A DNA stretch of 64,000 nucleotides, taken from positions 1-64,000 of IMG/VR virus record IMGVR_UViG_3300037424_000485. The stretch is one strand, 5' to 3'. Below are positions 16,742 to 56,984 of the stretch, piece after piece. The stretch is from a virus. Lineage: Duplodnaviria > Caudoviricetes. The notes under the pieces were generated by a model. That model ran no database searches, had not been told where the DNA came from, and saw only the letters and a program-made list of their open reading frames with translations. Positions within the stretch are counted from its first letter, which is position 1; each line of letters starts with the position of its first letter. The translations under genes were made by a program, and so were the position numbers.

Positions 16742-16749
16742 TATAAATA
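16742..16749 (+). promoter_or_regulatory. T4-type late promoter for the lysis cassette and internal-protein array
   Basis: TATAAATA directly after the terminator and before the operon. Confidence 0.7.
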
Positions 16750-18460: not shown

Positions 18461-18522
18461 AAATGTATACTTTAATAGTTATTAACCATAATAAAGTACA
18501 TAATAATAGACATTAATAACTT

Positions 18523-19152
18523 ATGAAACTACAACAATACCTTACAGAGGTAATGAATATCAAGAATTGGATTGAGTTGAGAGACATACTTGATAAAGAT
18601 TGTCAACCATTCATCAAAGAGTTAAAAGGTGCTAAAACTCTTCTATATAGGGGTGTAAAGGCATCTCCTGGCTTCTATGAGAAGAAAGTAACTAGAACAG
18701 ATAGGAAGCCAAGGTTATTAGATCAATCATTACACCAGAGGCTTAGTGATGCATCTAAAGAGATGTTTGGGTGGAACATTAGAGAAGAGGGTGTGTTTGC
18801 AACAAATAATGAAAGAGATGCAGATATTTGGGGCAAACCGGCAATCATATTTCCAGTAGGCAAGATAGAATATGTATGGGAGTGGAATGTCGAAGAACTA
18901 TATAACAATTATGATAAGGGATATGGATCAGGCGGGGGAGAATGGGAAGAAAGAACGTTCAAATCTCATATCATCCCAGAAATAAAGAAATATAAAACAA
19001 AGGATCTCCATATATATCTAAACTATAAATCACCAAGACAGTCTGAATGTATTGTAAAATGTCAGTCTTATTATGTTATTAATGTAGAATGGAAAGAAAC
19101 CCTGATCGGATGGTACGGTACTAAGAAATACGATAAGAGGTATACAGATTGA
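18523..19152 (+). CDS. Capsid-targeted internal protein, ART-like paralogue 1
   Basis: MKLQQYLTE; LLYRG, FATN, QSECIV. Confidence 0.6.
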   Translation: MKLQQYLTEVMNIKNWIELRDILDKDCQPFIKELKGAKTLLYRGVKASPGFYEKKVTRTDRKPRLLDQSLHQRLSDASKEMFGWNIREEGVFATNNERDADIWGKPAIIFPVGKIEYVWEWNVEELYNNYDKGYGSGGGEWEERTFKSHIIPEIKKYKTKDLHIYLNYKSPRQSECIVKCQSYYVINVEWKETLIGWYGTKKYDKRYTD

Positions 19153-19409
19153 AATTTAAACAATATATATTTGAAGTTATATTAAAGAAGGGCGAATTAT
19201 CAAAGTATAAGGATATACATGGTGTGGAAGTCACTATATTTAAAGAAGGTGGTGGCTATTATGTTGATACGAATAGTTATGATTTTGATTTTAGTGCTAA
19301 AAATATGCATGACCTCATAATTATATTAAAAGGTAGAGGATTCACAAAATATGTTGCGGGGAAAGATTTAAAATTATTAAACTACAAAAATACCTTAAAG
19401 AAGATATAG
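19149..19409 (+). CDS. Small capsid-targeted internal protein (TTG start)
   Basis: (M)KFKQYIFE N-terminus. Confidence 0.55.
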   Translation: MKFKQYIFEVILKKGELSKYKDIHGVEVTIFKEGGGYYVDTNSYDFDFSAKNMHDLIIILKGRGFTKYVAGKDLKLLNYKNTLKKI

Positions 19410-20020
19410 AAACTGATATTATTGATACGTTAAGGCGTGATTGTCAGCCTTTCATAAAAGAAATGAAAGGCACTACTGGTATACCTACAAGATATACAAG
19501 TAATAATATAAAATATCTAGAAAAATTAGAGGTTAGAAAGGATCGTAAACCTCTAGATACTCCTAGAGGTGTTCATGAGTATCTAGATAGTTTATTTAAT
19601 AAATATTTTGGATGGAAAGGAAGATCAGAAGGTTTGTTTGTATGGTCACATAAACTTACTATGCCAAGACAAACATATCTTGTATTTCCAATAGGAAAAT
19701 ATAGGTATGTATACTCAGATGATGTGCCGGATTTATTCGCAATACTTGCAGATAATATATTTTTATACACAGACAAAGAATTAGAAAAACTTACACATAT
19801 AGGTAGTAGAGGAATACCTAAAGAAAAATGGAATGATGCTGTTAAAGATAAAGAAAGACAAGAAAAACTTGAAAAGTTAGTTAAAACTTATAAATCAAAA
19901 GGGCTTAAAGAATTATCTTCAAAAAGCATGTCTCCAATTGAAGTAATGATAGATTGTAAAGAATATTATCTTAGAGATATACAGTTTTCTAATCTTATAA
20001 TGGATAGGTTGTTGCGATAA
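19376..20020 (+). CDS. Capsid-targeted internal protein, ART-like paralogue 2 (probable ATT start)
   Basis: Frame of 19463..20020 extends upstream to IKLQKYLKE...RDCQPFIKE, matching its paralogues. Confidence 0.55.
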   Translation: MKLQKYLKEDIETDIIDTLRRDCQPFIKEMKGTTGIPTRYTSNNIKYLEKLEVRKDRKPLDTPRGVHEYLDSLFNKYFGWKGRSEGLFVWSHKLTMPRQTYLVFPIGKYRYVYSDDVPDLFAILADNIFLYTDKELEKLTHIGSRGIPKEKWNDAVKDKERQEKLEKLVKTYKSKGLKELSSKSMSPIEVMIDCKEYYLRDIQFSNLIMDRLLR

Positions 20021-20022
20021 AT

Positions 20023-20640
20023 ATGAAACTACAAAAATACCTAACAGAAAAATATAGAAATGAGACTAAAGATATTGATAAGATATATGATAAGTTAAAA
20101 AAAGACTGTGCTCCTTATATATCTATGCTTAAATCAAACAACATAAAGCCGTTTATAAAAGGTATTATGAAAAATCAAAGTGGTCTTATAAAAAAAGACA
20201 CACAAGCTTATAGATCTCCAAGAGGTATGATGCCATGGGTTGCTGATGAATTTAATAGATGGTTGGAGAAGAATAAACACAATACAAGAAATGGATCTGT
20301 TATAGCCACAAGTAATAGAAAAGTTGCTGAAGATTTTGGTATATTATATTGGGTATTCCCCATTGGAGAGTTAAAATATACATGGGTAGATACAAAAGAT
20401 ATAAATGTTACAGATCCTAGAACTGGATGGTATAATTTTGCGGTAGAGGATTATCTTAATTTTACAGGCCCCGAAGATCATCGTGTACAGAAAATGAAAA
20501 AACCTTTTCCAGATTATTTCCACACTAACAAAGATATAAAAAAAGCATATAATTATTGGAATGAGATATGGTTTAGCTGTGATAAATATTATATATTAAT
20601 GATAAATGATGATGTTGAAGACATAATGAGCAGGTTATAA
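20023..20640 (+). CDS. Capsid-targeted internal protein, ART-like paralogue 3
   Basis: MKLQKYLTE; KDCAPYI, VIATS, FG..YWVFPIG, NEIWF. Confidence 0.6.
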   Translation: MKLQKYLTEKYRNETKDIDKIYDKLKKDCAPYISMLKSNNIKPFIKGIMKNQSGLIKKDTQAYRSPRGMMPWVADEFNRWLEKNKHNTRNGSVIATSNRKVAEDFGILYWVFPIGELKYTWVDTKDINVTDPRTGWYNFAVEDYLNFTGPEDHRVQKMKKPFPDYFHTNKDIKKAYNYWNEIWFSCDKYYILMINDDVEDIMSRL

Positions 20641-20642
20641 GA

Positions 20643-21071
20643 ATGAGATTTAATAAATACATATTAGAAGATGGCAAGATAGTAGGCCATATAGATCTAC
20701 CAGTTGACGATAAAATAACAAGGCAAGACCTATCCCTTTTAGAAAAGATACTAGATCAACTTTTTAAAAACCTTGATATAGATATTGAATTTACTAAGCA
20801 CTTTTTTGATAGGGTTAATGATCCAAGAAACAAGCAACAGATTCAATTTTCAGAGCTTCATTCTCTGTTCACAAAAACGTATGTGAAATTTGGACAACAA
20901 CTATCAAAAATGAGTGACGGAGTTCAGGGAGTTCTTGACGATATACAAGATGATATTAATATTCCTTTTGTTCTTAAATGGAATGAGAAGAGTAAAATGA
21001 TAGAGCTAGTTAATGTGACTGTAATGAGAAAAAAGAATTTTAAAACAAGGGATAGGATATTTAAAATATAA
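20643..21071 (+). CDS. Capsid-targeted internal protein of unknown function
   Basis: MRFNKYILE; DIEFTKHFFDRVNDPRN. Confidence 0.6.
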   Translation: MRFNKYILEDGKIVGHIDLPVDDKITRQDLSLLEKILDQLFKNLDIDIEFTKHFFDRVNDPRNKQQIQFSELHSLFTKTYVKFGQQLSKMSDGVQGVLDDIQDDINIPFVLKWNEKSKMIELVNVTVMRKKNFKTRDRIFKI

Positions 21072-22057
21072 TGAAAATAATACAAGAACACCGATATACT
21101 CTAAAAGAGGCTAAAGAAGAAAAAAAGAAAGAAAAAACAACTAATAAAAAGATTGTTATTCTTACTACTCGTAATACCGATGATCCAGATCCAAAGATTG
21201 TGTATTTTGAGACAGTGAAAGCATTGGTAGATATTATGGAGGAGAGGGGTATAGAATACTATGTACTTTTTACAGAAAACGCCTTCGTCACCAATGAAGA
21301 TGGTGTTATCACCATTTATAATGTTGATGATAAAAAAGGTATGGTTATATCTCCTAAAAACACTATAGTTATCAATAGAAATACTACTGGTGGTGGTCTT
21401 GGATCGTCTGGTATTACTATCCAGCTTGAGAAGAATAACTTTACATGCATTAACTCAAAAGAGTGTATTGATACATGTAGTGATAAATATAGAACATGTT
21501 TGAGACTGGCAGAGAAGGGTATACCAGTTCCAAGGACATTATTAATTCAAGATGAGTTAACCTTTGATAGACTGAAAGGAGAGATAAAATATCCTGTTGT
21601 TGTTAAAACCCTTACAGGATCACAAGGCATAGGCGTTTTTATATCAGAATCAGCTATGAATCTTAAATCTGTTCTTCAAGCAATATGGTCTATTGATGAC
21701 GGAGTAGAGGTGTTATTGCAGGATTTTATTGAAGCCGATGGTGATATAAGAGCTTGGTTCATTGAGAATGAATTAATAGCTGCAATGAAGAGAGTTAAGA
21801 TAGATGGTGATTTCAGATCTAATTTTAGTCTAGGTGGTAAGACAGAGAAAGTTATAATGACACCAGAACAACTAGCTATATGTAAAAAGGTTGTTAGGAT
21901 TGTAGATGGAAAGCTCCTTGGTATTGATCTTATGATTAATGAGAAGGGAGAACCATTTGTTTTAGAGGTTAATTCATCACCTGGAACTACAGGCATTACA
22001 GAGGCTTCAGGTGTTCCAGTAGCTGAAAAAATTGTAGACTACTTGATGTCATTATGA
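21071..22057 (+). CDS. rimK: RimK-family ATP-grasp ligase
   Basis: DKYRTCLRL, YPVVVKTLTGSQGIGV, LLQDFI, DIR, FRSNFSLGG, GIDL, LEVNSSPG. Confidence 0.85.
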   Translation: MKIIQEHRYTLKEAKEEKKKEKTTNKKIVILTTRNTDDPDPKIVYFETVKALVDIMEERGIEYYVLFTENAFVTNEDGVITIYNVDDKKGMVISPKNTIVINRNTTGGGLGSSGITIQLEKNNFTCINSKECIDTCSDKYRTCLRLAEKGIPVPRTLLIQDELTFDRLKGEIKYPVVVKTLTGSQGIGVFISESAMNLKSVLQAIWSIDDGVEVLLQDFIEADGDIRAWFIENELIAAMKRVKIDGDFRSNFSLGGKTEKVIMTPEQLAICKKVVRIVDGKLLGIDLMINEKGEPFVLEVNSSPGTTGITEASGVPVAEKIVDYLMSL

Positions 22058-22857
22058 GATTTAATCAATACATATTATCAGAGGGAAGGGGAAAACCACT
22101 AAAGAAGGCAATGGCTCTTGAATATATTAAAACACACTGCAAGAAAGCTCTTGAGGAATACTATAAAGGCCATATTATATACAGAGGTATTGATAATACG
22201 GATATAGCTTCAGCATTTGAAATAACAGGAAAATCAACAACACCTAGAAAGTCTGCAAACACCACAAATCATTATACATTATTGATAGACAACCTTCCAT
22301 CATGGAGGGGATTTCCTAAGAGAAGTCAGTCTATCATATGTAGCACGTCTAATGATAAAGCTAGTATGTACGGTGAGGTGTTTGTGGTCTTCCCTATCGA
22401 TGGTGCTAAGATAGGCATATGCCCTGAAGATGATATATTCTTTTCTTTTAAGTTTATGAAAGGCGAGACTATGAGGACTTTTAATAATTCCATTAATAAT
22501 ATAATGGAGTTAGTGAGTGGTTTGAAACTTGGGAATACGGATGCTAGTTGGGCTGTAATGATGAAGTATTTTAAAGGTATTGATGATGTAATGAAGCCAT
22601 TAAGTGCTGATGAGAGAAAAGAGATGACATCTCGCATATTTGGTGCTAAGATTGTTTTAGATGGTTATGACCCTGAAAAAGGAATTTTTGTACATCTCAA
22701 TGAAGTTATGGCCCCAAGAGAAAACAATTTTAGACTAATTCAATCTGGTGGGGTTATACCATATGATAAAGAAGTATGGATTGAAGACAAGTGTATTTTA
22801 ATTGATGAATATATGATTAAGACATCAACAAAAGAAAAAAGATTGGAACTAAAATGA
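22054..22857 (+). CDS. Capsid-targeted internal protein, ART-like paralogue 4
   Basis: MRFNQYILSE; IIYRG, IICSTS, MYG.VFVVFP, KEVWI. Confidence 0.65.
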   Translation: MRFNQYILSEGRGKPLKKAMALEYIKTHCKKALEEYYKGHIIYRGIDNTDIASAFEITGKSTTPRKSANTTNHYTLLIDNLPSWRGFPKRSQSIICSTSNDKASMYGEVFVVFPIDGAKIGICPEDDIFFSFKFMKGETMRTFNNSINNIMELVSGLKLGNTDASWAVMMKYFKGIDDVMKPLSADERKEMTSRIFGAKIVLDGYDPEKGIFVHLNEVMAPRENNFRLIQSGGVIPYDKEVWIEDKCILIDEYMIKTSTKEKRLELK

Positions 22858-23576
22858 AATACAATACATTTTTAAATGAATCTATACAAGATATTGGCAT
22901 CCTTAAAGCCGTTTTTATGGGTGGTGTTCCAGGAGGAGGAAAATCCTACGTATTAAAGAAACTTACTAATGCTAAGATAGAGCCAAGAATTGTGAATACT
23001 GATATTTGGACTGAATTTTTAAAAGTTGGTGGTGATAACCAAATATGGATGGATAATGCTGATAAAACCAAACATCTTACCAAGGCTCAGTTAACACATT
23101 ACATTAACTCTATGCTTCCTTTATGGGTAGACGGTACAAGCAATAAGGCCAGCTCTTTATTCACTAGAGAAGGGGCCTTAAAATCAGTTGGTTATGATAC
23201 CGCTATGGTATGGGTAACTACAACACTAGAAACAGCACAGAGAAGAGCTAAAGAGCGTGAAAAAGCTATTGGAAGACATGTAGACCCTAAATTCATAGAA
23301 GAGTTATGGAGCAAAGCAAATAAGATGAAAGACTACTATAAGAGCCATTTTGATGTGTTCCTTGAGGTACATAATGATGATGGCGATCTTAACGATAAAG
23401 TAGTGCTTGATGGATTTAGAAAGATGACATCGTTTTATACATCACCTATTAGGAATCCTATCGGTATTGAATTAAAAGAAAAAATGATAAAAAATGGATG
23501 GAAGTATCTTAACGATACTGATATGTATGACATTGGGGATTTAAATAAAGTAGTTTCAAACTGGTATAAACATTAA
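22854..23576 (+). CDS. Capsid-targeted P-loop kinase (zeta-toxin/AAA_33-like)
   Basis: MKYNTFLNE; Walker A GGVPGGGKS, WVDGT, RAKERE..GRHV. Confidence 0.75.
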   Translation: MKYNTFLNESIQDIGILKAVFMGGVPGGGKSYVLKKLTNAKIEPRIVNTDIWTEFLKVGGDNQIWMDNADKTKHLTKAQLTHYINSMLPLWVDGTSNKASSLFTREGALKSVGYDTAMVWVTTTLETAQRRAKEREKAIGRHVDPKFIEELWSKANKMKDYYKSHFDVFLEVHNDDGDLNDKVVLDGFRKMTSFYTSPIRNPIGIELKEKMIKNGWKYLNDTDMYDIGDLNKVVSNWYKH

Positions 23577-23585
23577 GGAAGTAAT

Positions 23586-23918
23586 ATGAGCAATCTAAAA
23601 GATCATTTAAACAAGCAACAATTAACAGAGTCTAAAAGTCTGTTCGATATTATATCAACATTCTTTAATGATTTCACTGGTTTTATGTCATTCTCTATTA
23701 AGGCCAGGAAAGCCACGAAAGAGTATCAGATTAAGGTAAAAAATACTGCTGACTCTGAAGGAAATATGACAATAAATCAAGTAAATGCTCTTGTTAATGA
23801 ATATGTAAAAACCTTAGAATCTCTTGTAAAAGGTTCTAAAGTATCTAAAGGAGTTACTGACGCATTCATGGCTGATATCTATAAAGAGATAGAAGATTCA
23901 AGAAAGGGATGGACATAA
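23586..23918 (+). CDS. Hypothetical protein (variant targeting motif ..QQLTE)
   Basis: 110-aa ORF with AAGGA RBS. Confidence 0.5.
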   Translation: MSNLKDHLNKQQLTESKSLFDIISTFFNDFTGFMSFSIKARKATKEYQIKVKNTADSEGNMTINQVNALVNEYVKTLESLVKGSKVSKGVTDAFMADIYKEIEDSRKGWT

Positions 23919-23944
23919 TACAAAAAATGTAATATAGTTGTGTT

Positions 23945-24139
23945 ATGAAAAAATCTACTGATCAAAAAATGTTATATGACAAGCAAGTAATTTGTGAGTT
24001 AAGTTTGTTATGGTGTCCACAGAAAAACTATTGTGATGGTGCAAAACCACACCTATTCCAAAAAGATAAATGCGGAAAATGTCCTATTGATAAAGATACT
24101 GTATGTGTAGAGTATAAAGAAAAAAGAACACATACCTAA
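23945..24139 (+). CDS. Small Cys-rich hypothetical protein
   Basis: 64 aa with 6 Cys. Confidence 0.4.
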   Translation: MKKSTDQKMLYDKQVICELSLLWCPQKNYCDGAKPHLFQKDKCGKCPIDKDTVCVEYKEKRTHT

Positions 24140-24201
24140 ACCACTTTATATCATATATGCCTATGTGTGGATATGATAGAAAAATATGATAATGTTATAT
24201 T

Positions 24202-24765
24202 ATGACTTTAGATATCAGATCACATTTACTAAGCAGGAATGTAGATTTCAGCATTGATAGGGTATATGTCAATGAAGAATTAAATACAGCTACATTTATG
24301 TTATTTAATCTAAGCTCTCAAATTGTTGGATATCAACATTACAATCCCAAGGGCCTTAAAGGTAGAAGATCGACTACCAAAAACGTTGATGTCCGTGACC
24401 TGAAATATCATTCTAGAATTACCAAAATTGATAATATTCCTATGCTTGCTGTATATGGGTTAGAGTCATTTGATTTTAATCTTCCCTATCTATTCCTTCT
24501 ACAAGGAATATTTGATTATGTTAAACTCCATAGACTAGGATTAAATGCTATAGCTGTTATTGCTAACAACCCAATTCATCTCTATAGCTGGTTGGAAATA
24601 TTACCACAGAAAAAGATAGCCATTACTGATAATGATGAAAATAATGCTGGTGATATGCTAAGTAAGTACGGTGATGATTCATACATGGTGCCTTTACTTG
24701 GCAATGATTTGGGTGATATGAGTCTATTACAGGTAAAAGAGTTTATTAGTCTTATAGATTACTAA
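24202..24765 (+). CDS. Stand-alone Toprim/primase-like protein
   Basis: IVGYQHYNP...YGLESF...LQGIFD...AITDND; canonical EG replaced by QG. Confidence 0.65.
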   Translation: MTLDIRSHLLSRNVDFSIDRVYVNEELNTATFMLFNLSSQIVGYQHYNPKGLKGRRSTTKNVDVRDLKYHSRITKIDNIPMLAVYGLESFDFNLPYLFLLQGIFDYVKLHRLGLNAIAVIANNPIHLYSWLEILPQKKIAITDNDENNAGDMLSKYGDDSYMVPLLGNDLGDMSLLQVKEFISLIDY

Positions 24766-24786
24766 TACTTAATAATATACAATAAA

Positions 24787-24826
24787 TATAAAACCATAAA
24801 CTCAATAAAGATTTTATGGTTTTATA
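24787..24826. terminator. AT-rich 14-bp hairpin (probable terminator) before late promoter 24837-24844
   Basis: TATAAAACCATAAA/TTTATGGTTTTATA. Confidence 0.6.
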
Positions 24827-24879
24827 TTTTAATTTATATAAATAATATAAAGATGTTTTAATAAAAAAAGGAGAATGAT

Positions 24880-25083
24880 ATGACCACTAAAAAAATACAC
24901 ATAGAAGATCCAATATTTGAAAAGGGAGATAAAGTTTATTTCCATGATAAAGATAAAATTCTACATGAAGATGGTATAATAACAGATCTAGAGATTCTTA
25001 CAGATTATATAGTATATACTGTTGAAGAAAAAGATAAAACATATCAATGTAGATGGCCTGATATATACATAAACAGCATATGA
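24880..25083 (+). CDS. Small SH3-like hypothetical protein
   Basis: FEKGDKVYF motif; AGGAG RBS. Confidence 0.5.
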   Translation: MTTKKIHIEDPIFEKGDKVYFHDKDKILHEDGIITDLEILTDYIVYTVEEKDKTYQCRWPDIYINSI

Positions 25084-25793
25084 AACTACAACAATATCTC
25101 ATAGAAGATAATAAAATAGAAATAATACATAGGGGCATAACAGCTGTTTATGATAACTGTATGCCGTTTATTAAAGATCTAGTAAAGGGTGGGTTTGACA
25201 ACACCCATAGACAGGATGATCTTCTATATAGTGGGAGGAATAAAACAATTCCTATGTTTAGTTCTGAGATAAGAAAAAACAGAAGACCAAAAGATATGCA
25301 ACCTTTCCGTCATGACACATATGACAGACTTTTTAATGATAAATTTGGTGTTAAGGTCAGGAGCAATTCATTATTTTGCACTGGCAATTACACAGAAGCA
25401 CTCAGTTATGGCAGCGGTCTTGCATATTTGATATTTCCTATTGGTCAGTATAAGGTTATATGGTCTGATAAGGTAAGAGATCTTTATACTGATTATATAG
25501 CAAATAAAGTATTTGAAAAATATCCTTCTATGATAGATCCAACACCACCAAGCAGAGAAGAAATAAAAAAGCTAGATCAAGAGCTTAACAAAATGATCAT
25601 ATCAACTTACCATGATGGTAAGTTGATGGGTGCTATTAGATCTGGTCATGAGATAATGTTAAGTGGTAAGGGATATATAGGATTAGATTATGATCTGTTT
25701 AGTAATCAACTTAAATTCTATATTACCAATTTCAAAACTAAAAAACCTACTCCTGAAATTCTAAATCAATTAACGGATTTATGGCCTATATGA
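25080..25793 (+). CDS. Capsid-targeted internal protein, ART-like paralogue 5
   Basis: MKLQQYLIE; LLYSG, LFCTG, YG..AYLIFPIG, HEIML. Confidence 0.6.
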   Translation: MKLQQYLIEDNKIEIIHRGITAVYDNCMPFIKDLVKGGFDNTHRQDDLLYSGRNKTIPMFSSEIRKNRRPKDMQPFRHDTYDRLFNDKFGVKVRSNSLFCTGNYTEALSYGSGLAYLIFPIGQYKVIWSDKVRDLYTDYIANKVFEKYPSMIDPTPPSREEIKKLDQELNKMIISTYHDGKLMGAIRSGHEIMLSGKGYIGLDYDLFSNQLKFYITNFKTKKPTPEILNQLTDLWPI

Positions 25794-26620
25794 AACTAAA
25801 ACAATATTTAAAAGAAAGCAGGAGTGATTCAATAGAAAAATTTGAGGCTATCGATTATATAAAAAAGAATTGTAAAAAAGCTCTTGATCGTGTTAAAAAA
25901 GGAGATATTATATATAGGGGTATGAGACAAGATAGCGACAACACATATCTTTTCATAGATCCCACCAAAGGAAATCCTAGGGTATCTGCAAACACATCAA
26001 ATCATACCACTCTTATAATAGATAACTCGCCAAAATGGAAGAGCTACCCTAAAAGAAGTCGATCTATCATATGTAGCACAGATAAAGCATATACTCACGG
26101 ATTTGGTAATATGACCTATATAGTTTTTCCATATGATAGTTGTACTTATGGTGTATGTCCCACTACAGATATATGGGGTTCATTTATGAAAACTACTAAA
26201 GCATATATTGATCAATTTAATGAGCGTTTAGATTTTACTATTAAAATGTCTATTGATGAGAAGAGTATTGTTACAGATAAGTCATGGGATTCCCTAAAAT
26301 CTTTTCTTAAAATATCATCTGACAGCATTAATTTAGAATTTAATAGAATAAGAAATATGGATAGCGGTATACAGAGTGATGATGCTATAAGAAAGTATAT
26401 TTCAGGTATTACTTTTGATGGTGTAATTAAATTATATCTTATCAATGCCTTCGATAAAAAAGAAAAAGTTGATATGCTTCAATTTGTTATAGATATTATA
26501 GACCCTGTAAAAAATAACTTCTCTAATAAATACAAAAATATACAATCTGAAGTATGGATTGGCGGTGCTCCATGTATTCTTGTTGATGCAGATTATAAAT
26601 CACTGATAGATATTATATAA
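25790..26620 (+). CDS. Capsid-targeted internal protein, ART-like paralogue 6
   Basis: MKLKQYLKE (ATGA overlap at 25790); IIYRG, IICST, FG..YIVFP, QSEVWI. Confidence 0.65.
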   Translation: MKLKQYLKESRSDSIEKFEAIDYIKKNCKKALDRVKKGDIIYRGMRQDSDNTYLFIDPTKGNPRVSANTSNHTTLIIDNSPKWKSYPKRSRSIICSTDKAYTHGFGNMTYIVFPYDSCTYGVCPTTDIWGSFMKTTKAYIDQFNERLDFTIKMSIDEKSIVTDKSWDSLKSFLKISSDSINLEFNRIRNMDSGIQSDDAIRKYISGITFDGVIKLYLINAFDKKEKVDMLQFVIDIIDPVKNNFSNKYKNIQSEVWIGGAPCILVDADYKSLIDII

Positions 26621-26749: not shown

Positions 26750-27406
26750 ATGAAATTTAAACAATATTTGATAGAAGATTTATTAACAGAGTATTATAAT
26801 GGTGATTATTTTTTAGATTGTAATGAAAATGTCACACTACCAGCAGAGATAATACCTAAAAATACTGTAAAGGCATATAAGCTATTTCGTACAAAAGGCA
26901 ATAAAATTTATCCATTATATGTTGATGCTAATACTCCTATTCCTGTAGGTAAATGGGTGGAAGCAGAAGTAGGGCCAATGACAGATAAAGGAAAGGTCAA
27001 ATCCAAACTAGGCCCACTGGCATTTAGACCTGGGTTTCATTCTGGTGATATGCCTATGGCTACACATATTGGTGGATTGATTAAAGGATCTATTAAGCCA
27101 GCATATAGGCCAGACAATCAAGTTTGGGCTGAAGTATTGGTTCCTGCTGATGTTGATTGGCAGGAAGAAGCTAATAAAAGAGCACAGAAAACAAAAGATG
27201 GAAAAATTATATCACGGACAGCTCAGATATCAGATCAAATACCAACAGGTGGTTATTACAAATATAAAACAAATTCTAATATGACAGGATCGTGGCTGAT
27301 TAGTGGTGCTATGAAAGTGCTTAAAATATTATCTGATGAAGAGGTTGAAAAAATAAATAAAAAATTTGGTGTTTCTGACCTACCAAGACTATCAGCTTTA
27401 AAGTAA
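26750..27406 (+). CDS. Capsid-targeted internal protein of unknown function
   Basis: MKFKQYLIE; AYKLF...IYPLY...LAFRPGFH. Confidence 0.6.
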   Translation: MKFKQYLIEDLLTEYYNGDYFLDCNENVTLPAEIIPKNTVKAYKLFRTKGNKIYPLYVDANTPIPVGKWVEAEVGPMTDKGKVKSKLGPLAFRPGFHSGDMPMATHIGGLIKGSIKPAYRPDNQVWAEVLVPADVDWQEEANKRAQKTKDGKIISRTAQISDQIPTGGYYKYKTNSNMTGSWLISGAMKVLKILSDEEVEKINKKFGVSDLPRLSALK

Positions 27407-27426: not shown

Positions 27427-28182
27427 ATGAAATTTAAACAATACTTAAAAGAAGACTTCTTTGATAATGGTGGAGCACCAGAAGCTTTTAAAAAACTAGA
27501 AGATAGGTCTATAGCCAAAGCATATACATATCTATTTCTCACATTAAAGAAGCCAATAGGTATATTACCAACCCTTCTAAAATACCTCAAAAAACACCTT
27601 CATACGCCTCTAGACAATCTATCTTATAAGTCAGGAGAGCAAGGCAATCTAGCCGTGTATTCCCCATCTATGGACTCTGTACAGTTAAATTTAACAGCAA
27701 TGAAAAAATTATCATCACCTAGAGGTGTTAAGGTTACCAATCTACAAGACCGTTTGGCAAATGCAAAAGAAAATCTTAAAAAATGGGAAAAGTTTCAGAG
27801 CAAAGCGAAATCACCAAAAGATGTAAAGACAGGCAGAGGTGGTTATAGTAAAACATCATCAATTATTATCCATTTAGAAGACAAGATAAGAAGGGGAGAT
27901 ATTCCAGTACCCTATAATTCATTTGACTATGCTAAAGACTCAGAACAAGTTCTTGAGATGATAATAGTCCATGAGTTGGGGCATAGATATTGGCACAAGA
28001 AGCTTGGAGGAAGTGATTCAAAAATACATGTTTTTTACAACCAAAAACAATTCCCATCTGAATACTCAAAGATTAACATTACTGAGTATTTTGCGGAACT
28101 ATATTCATTAACAAAGGTTGGTCTGATTGACAAAGCTGATATATCTAATGAGGTTAAAACATATATGAAGAGTTTGAAATGA
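27427..28182 (+). CDS. Capsid-targeted zincin-like metallopeptidase
   Basis: MKFKQYLKE; HELGH followed by EYFAE. Confidence 0.65.
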   Translation: MKFKQYLKEDFFDNGGAPEAFKKLEDRSIAKAYTYLFLTLKKPIGILPTLLKYLKKHLHTPLDNLSYKSGEQGNLAVYSPSMDSVQLNLTAMKKLSSPRGVKVTNLQDRLANAKENLKKWEKFQSKAKSPKDVKTGRGGYSKTSSIIIHLEDKIRRGDIPVPYNSFDYAKDSEQVLEMIIVHELGHRYWHKKLGGSDSKIHVFYNQKQFPSEYSKINITEYFAELYSLTKVGLIDKADISNEVKTYMKSLK

Positions 28183-28826
28183 AATTTAAACAATATCTCA
28201 CAGAGATGGAAGATGCTGGCACTGGTGGTAAAGCCTTTGAGAAGGTTTTTATGGGTGCTTGTGATCTTATTGGCCTTCAGTATGAGAAAAATGGTGTTAA
28301 TGGTAGAGGTTGGGATATAAAACCTATTGGTGATGGCTGGACAAGAATTATTAGTAGTATGGATGTAAATATCAAGGTTGCTAATACCAAATGGCTTTTT
28401 AGTTCCACTGAGCTAACAAATATTGTGCCATGGGATGGTATTGATGATAACTATGATGAAAAAAGTGTTATCAATAGGATAAAAGACATATTTAAAAGAA
28501 TTGGTCTACCTCAGACAGTATTCTTAAAGCCAAAAACAGATGCCATTCAAGATAAGATAACAGATGCTGTTAAAGGTAAAGATATCATAGAGTTAGAGAA
28601 GATATTTGTTAGCAATAATTTCTATGCTGAGAAGTTAGGAAGAAATTACAATATAAGAATATCTGTACATGATGATGGTAAAATAGGATCTATAGCAATT
28701 GATAAAAGTGGTAAGGTGTTCATGAGATCTGAGAGGCCCAGAAAGCTAGGTGGTTCTGTATCTGTTACATTCAGAACACCAACACCAAAATTAAACAAGA
28801 CAGAAAGACCTATTAAGTTGAGATAA
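28179..28826 (+). CDS. Capsid-targeted protein, possible PD-(D/E)xK nuclease fold
   Basis: MKFKQYLTE; AFE...WDI...VNIK. Confidence 0.45.
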   Translation: MKFKQYLTEMEDAGTGGKAFEKVFMGACDLIGLQYEKNGVNGRGWDIKPIGDGWTRIISSMDVNIKVANTKWLFSSTELTNIVPWDGIDDNYDEKSVINRIKDIFKRIGLPQTVFLKPKTDAIQDKITDAVKGKDIIELEKIFVSNNFYAEKLGRNYNIRISVHDDGKIGSIAIDKSGKVFMRSERPRKLGGSVSVTFRTPTPKLNKTERPIKLR

Positions 28827-28830
28827 CATT

Positions 28831-29472
28831 ATGAAATTTAAACAATATATCATAGAAATGGCAATGCCGAGAGCACAGGATATTGCTAAAGTATATTACC
28901 ACGGCACAAGTACCGATAAAGCAGCACAAGGTATCTTGAAAAATGGTATCCAACCGCCTGATCTTGTAAATAAAAAAGGCCAATTAACACCTGTTGAAGG
29001 TAAGACATATCTAACATCTGACTTATCATATGCTACAATGTATGCTGTAGGTGCAGATATGGTTGGTAGTAAACTTCCTGATAGTTTTATTAAAAATGGG
29101 GAAGAATATGCTTATATATTTGTTATTGATGGCAGAGAATTAAGAGACATACAGCCGGATGAAGATGCAGTGGGGGAAATGGTAAGTAAAAAATTACCAT
29201 ATTGGCTTTATAACATGGCAGAGAAGCACCTAACAGAGAACCAAATGAAAAAAGTGCTTTGGGGTGAATATGCATATTGGGCGCAAGCTGGTAAGAAGTT
29301 AAACAAGATAATGACATCGGCCCAAAAGTTAGAGATTATTGATCTAGGTGCAAGCATAGCCAACACTGGCAGTCTAAGAATTAAAGAAGCCTGGAAGCTA
29401 CATAAAAACGATAATATAAAACTTAAAGAAGATGGATCTAATTTCTTTAAAGTTGCTGAGAGAATAAAATGA
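28831..29472 (+). CDS. Capsid-targeted ADP-ribosyltransferase-like protein (H-Y-E class)
   Basis: MKFKQYIIE; YYHGTS, TYLTSDLSYATMYA, QPDED. Confidence 0.65.
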   Translation: MKFKQYIIEMAMPRAQDIAKVYYHGTSTDKAAQGILKNGIQPPDLVNKKGQLTPVEGKTYLTSDLSYATMYAVGADMVGSKLPDSFIKNGEEYAYIFVIDGRELRDIQPDEDAVGEMVSKKLPYWLYNMAEKHLTENQMKKVLWGEYAYWAQAGKKLNKIMTSAQKLEIIDLGASIANTGSLRIKEAWKLHKNDNIKLKEDGSNFFKVAERIK

Positions 29473-34267: not shown

Positions 34268-35716
34268 ATGAAATTTATACAGTATATAAATGAATCCTCA
34301 GATGTAGATATCAAGAAAAGATGGGCTGATTATATCAAATCTGATCTCATGATTAAGAATGGTGTGGATATCCTTAGAAAAATTAACTCTAAAGGATATG
34401 ATGCTTTTATTGTTGGCGGTGCTGTTCGTGATCTCATCCTTGGTGATAAACCTCATGATATAGATATATCTACCAATTGTCCTATGGATGTTCTTGAGAA
34501 GATGTTCAAGACATATGATATCGGCAAATCCAAAACATTTGGTATTGTTGCTGTTAATCAAGGCGGTAATACTTATGAGATAGCTCAATTTAGAAATGAG
34601 AGTGATTATTCAAACGGTAGACACCCTGATACTATCAAAATAGTTAAAGATTTTAAATCAGATGCTGCACGTAGGGATTTAACCATCAATGCAATGGCTG
34701 TAGATGCTGATGGTAATATTATAGATCATTTCAACGGTAAGAGAGCTGTTTTCGATAAGGTAATCAAAACTGTTGGTAATCCTAATGATAGATTCCAAGA
34801 AGACCACCTCAGAATGATGAGGGCTGTACGTTTTTCTGGCAAGTTGGGGTTTGACATTGATGTTGAAACTAAAGATTCTATCAAGAAAAACAAAGACCTT
34901 ATCAAGAACATCTCTATTGAGAGAGTTAAAGATGAGCTTATTAAGATGGCATCCCAAGAAGGTAATAAATTTGCAGATAGCATTTTGATGTTGGATGAAG
35001 TTGGCATTCTTGATATCATCCTTCCAGAGATTACTAAATTAAAGCAGTTCAAAGAGACTGAGAGGCACCATCCTGAAGCATATGAGAATGGGGGAGGTAC
35101 TGTATTCGATCATACCATTGCAGCTCTTAGAATGAATAAATTGATAGATCCTCTTGTTAATTTGGGTGTGTTGTTTCATGACATTGGCAAGCAATCTACA
35201 TATAAATGGGATTCTGATAAAGATTCTCATTCTTACCATGGACATGCTAAAGAGGGTAAAGACCTTATTGATATTATAGCTAAGAGGCTGAAGTTATCAA
35301 ATAAAGAGTATGATTCTATCTTGTTTTCTATGGTAAATCACATGAGTCTGTTTAATGGCATTGATATGAAGCCATCGAAAATTATAAAACTGGTTAAAGA
35401 TGAAAACTGGAATATCTTAGTTCAAGTAAGTTACTGTGATGACAGTTGCAGGACTAACCTTTTTGACAAAAAAACATTTGACAGCACCATTGATAATATG
35501 ATTTCTATTGCTAATAAATGGGGTGATAAGATCTCTGGGACTACTGTTAAAGTTATCGATGGTAAACAGGTTATGAAATTAACTGGTATAAAACAAGGGA
35601 AACAGATTGGAGAAATAATCAGTACGGTTACTGATATTGTTCTCAGAAATGGTATTAAAAATCAAAAAGATATAAATACACTTATAATGAAAGTCTTTAA
35701 TGACATGGAGAAATAA
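34268..35716 (+). CDS. cca: CCA tRNA nucleotidyltransferase with HD domain and capsid-targeting-like N-terminus
   Basis: VGGAVRDL..DIDI, ARRDLTINAMA, EDHLRMMRAVRF, DHT...FHDIGK; starts MKFIQYINE. Confidence 0.9.
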   Translation: MKFIQYINESSDVDIKKRWADYIKSDLMIKNGVDILRKINSKGYDAFIVGGAVRDLILGDKPHDIDISTNCPMDVLEKMFKTYDIGKSKTFGIVAVNQGGNTYEIAQFRNESDYSNGRHPDTIKIVKDFKSDAARRDLTINAMAVDADGNIIDHFNGKRAVFDKVIKTVGNPNDRFQEDHLRMMRAVRFSGKLGFDIDVETKDSIKKNKDLIKNISIERVKDELIKMASQEGNKFADSILMLDEVGILDIILPEITKLKQFKETERHHPEAYENGGGTVFDHTIAALRMNKLIDPLVNLGVLFHDIGKQSTYKWDSDKDSHSYHGHAKEGKDLIDIIAKRLKLSNKEYDSILFSMVNHMSLFNGIDMKPSKIIKLVKDENWNILVQVSYCDDSCRTNLFDKKTFDSTIDNMISIANKWGDKISGTTVKVIDGKQVMKLTGIKQGKQIGEIISTVTDIVLRNGIKNQKDINTLIMKVFNDMEK

Positions 35717-36173: not shown

Positions 36174-36356
36174 ATGAAACTAAAGAATTTTATATCAGAG
36201 GCACAATTCCGTAAGGGTCAGAATGTAACTATTATCGATACTGGTGAGGCCGGATGTATAGTAAAGATTGGTTCAAATACCCAAATGGTTCAATTCTCTG
36301 ATGGTTCTACTAGACCTTTCGGAAATCATGAGCTTAAAGATCGTATGGTAAGCTAA
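36174..36356 (+). CDS. Small capsid-targeted SH3-like protein
   Basis: MKLKNFISE; FRKGQNV. Confidence 0.55.
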   Translation: MKLKNFISEAQFRKGQNVTIIDTGEAGCIVKIGSNTQMVQFSDGSTRPFGNHELKDRMVS

Positions 36357-56507: not shown

Positions 56508-56984
56508 ATGAAATTTAATAATTTTTTAAAAGAAAGTACAAAACCACCAAAACCATCCACCAATTGTGATTATAAAGTAAATGTTTTTACTTCATTTTTA
56601 TCACCAGATGAAAAGGATGTATCCTATCTATATTCATTATCAGATAAGACAAATAAAAACTTTGTATTGTCAAATGACGGGTCTGTATTCTTTTGGGAGT
56701 ATACAGGTAGTAAAAAAGATAAAGAAATATTTTCATGTGCTGAAAAGTCAGATGAGAAACTTGAAAAACCTCATGCATCTAAAAAAGAATACTTTGCTGG
56801 TGTTCTTGATGGGAAGTATGTAGTTATAGATTCAAACCATAAGATTGTTATCTCAGCAAATTCATTTGATCGTATGATGGCTGATATTGTTGAAGATTGG
56901 GGAAAATATCCAATTTACGATTGGCCTGAACCAGATAGTAAGGATGGATCTGCTGGAGTTTATGACAGAAACCATTACAGTTAA
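56508..56984 (+). CDS. Isolated capsid-targeted protein with its own late promoter
   Basis: MKFNNFLKE; TATAAATA 56476-56483. Confidence 0.6.
   Translation: MKFNNFLKESTKPPKPSTNCDYKVNVFTSFLSPDEKDVSYLYSLSDKTNKNFVLSNDGSVFFWEYTGSKKDKEIFSCAEKSDEKLEKPHASKKEYFAGVLDGKYVVIDSNHKIVISANSFDRMMADIVEDWGKYPIYDWPEPDSKDGSAGVYDRNHYS

Follow-up and report, generated by a model that had tools for sequence, protein, structure and literature searches.

Six related genes in a T4-like phage genome

What are six clustered, related genes of a large uncultured phage for, and how would their products reach the host? The locus lies at 18523-26620 of a 64,000-nucleotide stretch of viral DNA (Duplodnaviria; Caudoviricetes), positions 1 to 64,000 of the IMG/VR record IMGVR_UViG_3300037424_000485, here called the window. 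A first-pass annotation, made from the letters of the window, had read the six genes as paralogs coding for probably virion-borne proteins with a cholera-toxin-like R-S-E signature of ADP-ribosyltransferases (ARTs). In the follow-up analysis described here we arrived at a modified reading. With somewhat better than even confidence, and leaning on predicted structures, we consider the six products to be enzymes of a large, unannotated ART-fold family that are packaged in the phage head, injected, and use nicotinamide adenine dinucleotide (NAD+) of the host on targets chosen by a variable insert.

The window is the first part of a 204,431-bp virus genome (32% G+C) assembled from sediment metagenomes. 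In a sequencing-run search, the DNA datasets with a match were sediment metagenomes and no RNA dataset was listed. Megablast against phage genomes gave no match. The genome encodes a gp23-type major capsid protein with at most 36% identity to that of any cultured phage, and a gp21-type prohead protease (Peptidase_S77 above the curated cut-off; G000:198943-200448, minus strand). Judged from these two genes, the source is thus a deep-branching, uncultured T4-like phage.

The six genes and the motifs that set them apart are the following (aa, amino acids):
18523..19152 (+), paralog 1: subfamily 1, 209 aa, leader MKLQQYLTE (18523-18549); R43 on strand 1 (18649-18651), T94 on strand 2 (18802-18804), E175 on strand 5 (19045-19047)
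19376..20020 (+), paralog 2: subfamily 1, 214 aa if read from ATT, leader IKLQKYLKE
20023..20640 (+), paralog 3: subfamily 1, 205 aa, leader MKLQKYLTE; FIKG (Lys replaces the strand-1 Arg), IATS on strand 2, NEIWF on strand 5
22054..22857 (+), paralog 4: subfamily 2, 267 aa, leader MRFNQYILSE; IIYRG, IICSTS, KEVWI; long helical insert, 125 residues from FP to Glu
25080..25793 (+), paralog 5: subfamily 1, 237 aa, leader MKLQQYLIE; LLYSGR (shifted-Arg variant), FCTG on strand 2, HEIML on strand 5
25790..26620 (+), paralog 6: subfamily 2, 276 aa, leader MKLKQYLKE; IIYRG, IICST, QSEVWI; 139 residues from FP to Glu

These six open reading frames (ORFs) are true paralogs of one family. A profile built from the six proteins and searched in six frames through the whole genome found exactly these six and none elsewhere, in agreement with the first-pass annotation. 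In pairwise BLASTP, expectation values (E) go down to 1e-40 (22054 with 25790) and 1e-21 (18523 with 19376). All six match PHROG 11975 (function unknown), and 22054 and 25790 also match PHROG 12810. The family falls into two subfamilies, one comprising 18523, 19376, 20023 and 25080 and the other 22054 and 25790; when the alignments of both, with relatives, were compared by hhalign, the probability was 99.1% (E 1.4e-18).

The motifs listed in the first-pass annotation are present in the alignment of the six. Four copies have DCxP[FY]I; the remaining pair has [HN]CKKAL instead. The strand-1 motifs are LLYRG, IIYRG, IIYRG, LLYSG, FIKG and PTRY; those of strand 2 are FATN, ICSTS, ICST, IATS and FCTG, with FVWSH instead in 19376. 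[YFW]G...[IV]FP is found in five of the six copies and the Glu strand in all of them. The ORF listed at 25781 has a better start at 25790, where the conserved leader begins. In 19376 an ATT stands where the paralogs have the ATG of the leader; reading from the first ATG (19463) yields a protein that lacks the leader and the first helix. This copy has also lost several near-invariant residues (G44, T94, Y103-G104), and may be decaying. It is the only copy that looks decayed.

Predicted ART fold

AlphaFold2 models were made on family alignments for 18523 (model 1; predicted local distance difference test, pLDDT, 91.9; predicted template modelling score, pTM, 0.87) and 22054 (model 2; pLDDT 88.9). 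Both models keep the order of the split beta-sheet ART core (strand 1, strand 2 plus helix, strands 3-4, strands 5-6). Model 1 was compared with 48,161 chains by an aligner independent of Foldseek, and ranks 1-8 were all members of the ART superfamily. The top match was BC2332 (PDB 2AUA; Z score 6.5, 3.5 Å, 128 residues), followed by Arr (Z 4.6), cholix toxin (4.4), Spx (4.2), diphtheria toxin (4.0), exotoxin A (3.8) and two DarT entries (3.5). An unbiased search with model 2 gave Arr (Z 5.7), 2AUA (5.2), Spx (4.1), 9ld3 (3.9), cholix toxin (3.9), CteC (3.7), PARP1/2 (3.6) and DarT (3.5), with cyclic-nucleotide-binding domains intermixed. The 9ld3 entry contains bound ADP-ribose; its title does not name the protein, which we take to be of the Tpt1 type. 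When the candidates of Foldseek were re-scored, ART folds made up 19 of the 20 listed entries, with Z at most 6.7. The match to BC2332 ranged over Z 6.5-6.7, 128-130 aligned residues and a root-mean-square deviation of 3.5-3.8 Å.

The ESM Atlas holds an independent model of 18523, which matched a DUF2441 cluster with template modelling (TM) scores of 0.51/0.62 over 137 aa; ART-PolyVal, DUF3990, Arr-ms and Scabin/Pertussis_S1 came next. BC2332 belongs to the ADP-ribosylation superfamily in SCOP (d.166.1.6; PMC3000352), and a structure-based analysis found a correspondence between it and diphtheria-type toxins at their active sites (PMC3024214). DUF2441 and DUF3990 are both in the ART clan of Pfam (PMC7955679). 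The ART-fold reading is drawn from the consistency across two models, one third-party model and four libraries, not from any single score. We conclude, with moderate support, that the six proteins are predicted to have an ART-superfamily fold.

Sequence profiles and the remaining libraries gave little. Profiles built from three family alignments gave only chance matches among PDB sequences. The Alt-type (ADPrib_exo_Tox), ART-PolyVal, DarT and DUF2441 profiles gave no match over the six genes in this genome, and the DUF2441 profile did not match phage Atu_ph07, a distant relative with virion data (see below). Foldseek against Swiss-Prot models gave noise only, and T4 Alt, ModA and ModB were not among the matches. 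In the weak Foldseek rows for model 1 against PDB, pertussis toxin S1 (E 0.07), 2AUA, OspC3 and PltA lead; the rows for model 2 are noise.

Conserved residues at catalytic-type positions

The elements of model 1 are arranged as follows:
residues 42-45: strand 1 (YRG)
residues 52-56: extra strand
residues 90-94: strand 2, with Thr at its end, then a helix
residues 105-112: strand 3
residues 116-120: strand 4
between strands 4 and 5: insert, helical
residues 175-179: strand 5, with Glu as its first residue
residues 182-186: strand 6

This is the established strand order of ARTs, whose catalytic triad sits on strands 1, 2 and 5 (His or Arg; Tyr, Ser or Thr; Glu, Asp or Gln). By topology, R43, T94 and E175 of model 1 probably occupy these positions. 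Among 128 aligned subfamily-1 sequences (mean column identity 17%), conservation is as follows:
E175: Glu in 128/128
P63 and P111: Pro in 128/128 each
R61: Arg in 127/128
R87: Arg in 127/128
G44: Gly in 125/128
C27: Cys in 125/128
position 94: Thr or Ser in 106/128

In subfamily 2, the equivalents of the conserved subfamily-1 residues are invariant or near-invariant. Variation at the strand-1 Arg is mostly compensated: R43 is present in 97 of the 128 relatives, S43 together with R45 in 26, and neither in 5. In a strand, residues i and i+2 point in the same direction. The place of the guanidinium group is therefore kept, and LLYSGR of 25080, which had been taken for degenerate, is a standard variant with a compensated Arg shift.

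Membership in the cholera-toxin-like R-S-E clade (cholera toxin, pertussis toxin, C3, iota and Alt), as first proposed, is not supported. The position two before the Glu is mixed (G 29, K 25, E 13 and N 10 among the 128), with no ExE/QxE motif; QSE appears in two of the six paralogs and is not a family feature. Pertussis toxin S1, a member of that clade, tops the weak Foldseek rows but reached only Z 2.3 by VIA, and BC2332/DUF2441, Arr, the diphtheria-toxin group and DarT outscore it structurally. What survives of the first assignment is a predicted ART-superfamily fold with Arg, Ser/Thr and Glu on strands 1, 2 and 5. Given the lack of an ExE/QxE signature and the nature of the structural neighbours, the assignment to a clade is uncertain.

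Within the domain core, conservation is lowest between strands 4 and 5; the C-terminal tail alone is more variable. Counted up to the Glu, starting at the conserved Asp that follows strand 4, the insert measures 37-146 residues in subfamily-1 relatives and 88-152 in those of subfamily 2; in the six paralogs it measures 63-139 residues from FP to Glu. ARTs carry a target-recognition loop at the position of this insert before strand 5. By analogy, the insert may be the target-recognition part of these paralogs.

N-terminal leader and virion association

All six paralogs begin with the leader M-K/R-L/F-x-Q/K-Y-L/I-x-E (19376 when read from ATT). It equals the T4 capsid-targeting sequence minus one residue: two aromatic residues at a spacing of three are retained, and [LI]-x-E comes after them. 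In T4 internal protein (IP) III, residues 4 and 7 were shown by mutagenesis to govern targeting, and residues 8 and 10 cleavage (PMC9026906). The leader start is found in 16 ORFs of the genome, all within 18.5-57 kb; apart from the paralogs, these comprise a zeta-like kinase, a CCA-adding enzyme (both described below) and several small proteins. Of the best 150 relatives of the family, nearly all retain the leader. A leader with the targeting aromatics and an [LI]-x-E site, as in T4-type head cargo, is thus accompanied by a gp21-type protease gene in this genome. In their mature form, the proteins are mildly basic (isoelectric point, pI, 8.5-9.1).

Direct data on virions come from the jumbo phage Atu_ph07. 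By profile, its gp53 to gp63 are eleven consecutive family members in which both subfamilies are present, and gp54 has two family domains. Their starts read M-R/K-W/L-x-x-L-x-E, gp63 being the most divergent. The gene numbering was matched to the published table by protein size and by the gp054 locus tag. In purified Atu_ph07 virions, all of gp53-gp63 were detected by electrospray ionisation tandem mass spectrometry (ESI-MS/MS), with 3-31 unique peptides and 12-46% coverage (PMC6102473, Table S5). Homologues of the family are therefore virion-associated in Atu_ph07. The term 'virion-borne' in the first-pass annotation is backed by three lines: the T4-like leader, the gp21-type protease in the genome and the virion proteomics of eleven Atu_ph07 homologues. 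The short leader could serve as a ready marker for such cargo in uncultured phages.

The paralogs lie in two co-directional gene runs, each preceded by an octamer that resembles T4 late promoters:
16742..16749 (+): TATAAATA, upstream of the gene run that holds paralogs 1-4
24837..24844 (+): TATAAATA, upstream of the gene run that holds paralogs 5 and 6

Going by the motif, the two octamers may act as promoters and the array may be expressed late. No terminator-like sites were found on the plus strand between 16000 and 30000, and the number of sigma-70-like promoters in the region is at chance level. A Shine-Dalgarno sequence is not recognisable upstream of most genes in the array (e.g., 18493-18522), which may hint at a host with little Shine-Dalgarno-led initiation.

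Family size and annotation status

The profile of the six proteins found 8,952 cluster representatives (50% identity clusters) in metagenomes at E ≤ 1e-3 and 6,257 at E ≤ 1e-10. The six are without a match to any Pfam model, and none of the Pfam families turns up repeatedly in the 128 aligned relatives. Where the sources give the members a name, it is "hypothetical", and searches of the AFDB clusters and BFVD returned only uncharacterised relatives. The cultured carriers are the jumbo phages Atu_ph07, RsoM2USA and SCTP-2, with several copies in each. According to a survey of jumbo phages, these encode several ARTs (PMC7824862). A metagenomic protein of 2645 aa (P0027) contains five family domains in one polypeptide, four of them in tandem, with no internal leaders; some other relatives have two family domains.

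A kinase linked to subfamily 2

A gene for a P-loop kinase overlaps paralog 4:
22854..23576 (+): Zeta-toxin/AAA_33-type P-loop kinase (Pfam), 240 aa, leader-like start MKYNTFLNES; overlaps paralog 4 by ATGA

In Atu_ph07, the 778-aa gp53 (L001:3485-5821, minus strand) is a fusion of a subfamily-2 domain (residues 1-238) with a Zeta_toxin/AAA_33 P-loop kinase, and its residues 250-444 are 32.5% identical to the kinase at 22854 (E 3e-25). The fusion in gp53 and the overlapping kinase gene here together point to a shared pathway for subfamily 2 and the zeta-like kinase, and do not indicate the substrate.

Proposed mechanism and alternative explanations

From the paralogy, the leader, the predicted fold, the conserved residues and the virion presence of the Atu_ph07 homologues, we infer cleavage, injection, NAD+ use and separate targets in the following scheme. 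The proteins would be made late in infection, and the nine-residue leader would dock them to the scaffolding core of the prohead. The gp21-type protease of the phage would then cut after the leader Glu (L/I-x-E), and the mature proteins, of 23-31 kDa, would enter the host with the DNA and transfer ADP-ribose from host NAD+. NAD+ would be held by the strand-1 Arg and the strand-2 Ser/Thr, and catalysis would fall to the invariant Glu of strand 5. Through the variable helical insert, the paralogs may each be steered to a different target in the host, either a protein or a nucleic acid.

Several observations weigh against this scheme. All structural Z scores are below ~8, the level at which the tool itself trusts a match, and Foldseek against PDB gave no match at E ≤ 1e-3 with either model. 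Neither Pfam nor PDB profiles provide a sequence-level link to any ART family. The nearest fold, BC2332/DUF2441, is without known activity. The equivalence of R43, T94 and E175 with catalytic positions depends on topology, not on superposed coordinates, and, in contrast to the ExE/QxE toxins, the position two residues ahead of the Glu is variable. The virion evidence is from a distant relative and speaks to presence in the virion, neither to cleavage nor to injection, and the late timing is based on a promoter-like motif only.

Alternatively, the six could be packaged ART-fold proteins that have lost catalysis and act by binding, as inhibitors or decoys of host defence proteins (cf. T4 IPI*) or as sponges of NAD+ or NAD-derived immune signals. 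The nearest fold has no known activity, 19376 has lost both its ATG and several near-invariant residues, and a variable insert in many paralogs would fit an arms race of binding surfaces. However, the Glu is invariant and the Arg, Pro and Gly residues are near-invariant in 128 sequences of only 17% mean column identity, and a compensated shift of the strand-1 Arg is expected of a catalytic or ligand-binding site, not of a protein-binding surface; we regard pure binding as rather improbable. The conservation pattern is likewise difficult for structural or assembly parts of the head interior (core or inner body) with no role after injection, as the conserved polar residues cluster at enzyme-like positions. 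Such parts would explain why the homologues are abundant in Atu_ph07 virions and why the mature pI of 8.5-9.1 resembles that of DNA-associated internal proteins. Yet copy number and inserts differ widely between phages, and the same leader stands on clear enzymes (the kinase, a CCA-adding enzyme and amidoligases), which makes a structural role very improbable in our view. Both of these explanations fit the conservation pattern less well than an enzyme does.

If the proteins are NAD+-dependent enzymes, their substrates could be nucleic acids or nucleotides instead of proteins, as is the case for DarT, Tpt1 and Arr, and subfamily 2 would then work with the zeta-like kinase, e.g., in the repair or modification of RNA or DNA ends, or on NAD-type metabolites. 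Among the structural neighbours, Arr has a small molecule as its substrate, DarT single-stranded DNA and Tpt1 RNA; three essentially invariant arginines (R58, R61 and R87), the subfamily-2-kinase fusion in gp53 with the adjacent, overlapping genes here, the leader-tagged CCA-adding enzyme at 34268 and a weak RNA_ligase match of Atu_ph07 gp66 all agree with such substrates. On the other hand, the Z scores fail to separate Arr, DarT and Tpt1 from the protein-modifying diphtheria-type toxins, the Tpt1 matches span only the NAD+ lobe of Tpt1, and a gene fusion is a sign of a functional link, not of a substrate. Within the frame of injected ARTs, we take nucleic-acid or nucleotide substrates as a serious option, though an unlikely one. 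To a bolder version we give the same low credence: the proteins would not be Alt-like protein modifiers at all but an injected, NAD+-dependent system acting on nucleic acids or nucleotide signals, with subfamily 2 and the co-packaged kinase working together and each insert variant disabling a different host defence seconds after injection. Injected ARTs with insert-chosen targets, whether protein or nucleic acid, remain the explanation that we prefer.

Comparison with known systems

T4 Alt is a head-packaged ART that the gp21 protease trims; injected along with the DNA, it acts before phage gene expression. We propose the six paralogs as functional analogues of Alt, i.e., packaged, protease-trimmed and injected ARTs. 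The likeness ends there: the paralogs showed no sequence or Foldseek similarity to the Alt and Mod proteins of T4, and the genome has no ADPrib_exo_Tox (Alt-type) match. They are smaller (200-280 aa vs. 682 aa for Alt), carry a short IP-type leader, come in six copies and have no ExE motif, and their activity is predicted only.

The leader is closer to that of T4 IPI, IPII and IPIII, which likewise have the aromatic pair three residues apart and then [LI]-x-E, and whose cargo also differs between related phages. The paralog leader is one residue shorter, and its cargo is a predicted enzyme fold with catalytic-type residues, whereas IPI, IPII and IPIII of T4 are small and basic. BC2332 of Bacillus cereus (DUF2441), the best structural match, is in the ART superfamily but has no leader and no known function, and neither the six genes nor their Atu_ph07 relatives match the DUF2441 profile. 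Arr, DarT, Tpt1 and the diphtheria-toxin group share the fold core (Z 3.5-5.7) and a single catalytic acid on strand 5. On strand 1 they have His where the paralogs have Arg, and sequence identity is 7-16%, so their substrates cannot be transferred to this family.

To our knowledge, textbooks have long had a single example of an ADP-ribosylating enzyme carried in a phage head, namely T4 Alt. The present family, with thousands of unannotated metagenomic members, appears to be the Alt idea multiplied, with up to a dozen copies per genome and differing inserts. If active, its members would amount to a large stock of ready-made effectors, delivered by large T4-like phages ahead of transcription, and could yield novel NAD+-dependent activities as well as new targets in the host. 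The co-packaged set would include the leader-tagged kinase, a CCA-adding enzyme and a second ART type, and amidoligases in the contig of another phage.

Other leader-tagged genes

The second ART type is encoded downstream of the array:
28831..29472 (+): seventh leader-tagged protein with an ART-like fold, of another family, 213 aa; motifs YYHGTS and YLTSD, His-Tyr type

In the ESM Atlas, the 28831 protein matches a viral cluster named DarT/PARP (feature score 0.93, TM 0.61), with DUF3990, Arr-ms and Pertussis_S1 also matched. It has 120 unannotated relatives, and its strand-1 motif aligns weakly with Tpt1 (E 0.31). An hhalign comparison of the six-paralog family with the 28831 family was not significant (probability 0.9%).

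Further genes of the window, all on the plus strand, are:
34268-35716 (+): CCA-adding/poly(A) polymerase-type nucleotidyltransferase with HD domain, leader MKFIQYINES
19149-19409 (+): unannotated leader-tagged ORF, start TTG
20643-21071 (+): unannotated leader-tagged ORF
26750-27406 (+): unannotated leader-tagged ORF, matches PHROG 30118
27427-28182 (+): unannotated leader-tagged ORF with a HELGH zinc-peptidase-like motif
28179-28826 (+): unannotated leader-tagged ORF
36174-36356 (+): unannotated leader-tagged ORF
56508-56984 (+): unannotated leader-tagged ORF
21071-22057 (+): RimK-type ATP-grasp ligase between paralogs 3 and 4, without leader (Pfam E 9e-41)

The phage may thus package a tRNA-repair enzyme (34268). 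The unannotated leader-tagged ORFs come from unrelated families. In another T4-like phage, a JGI metagenome contig (L005:4801-13022) carries three Amidoligase_2 genes and four tandem subfamily-2 members, all leader-tagged, and this cluster adjoins the gene for the large terminase.

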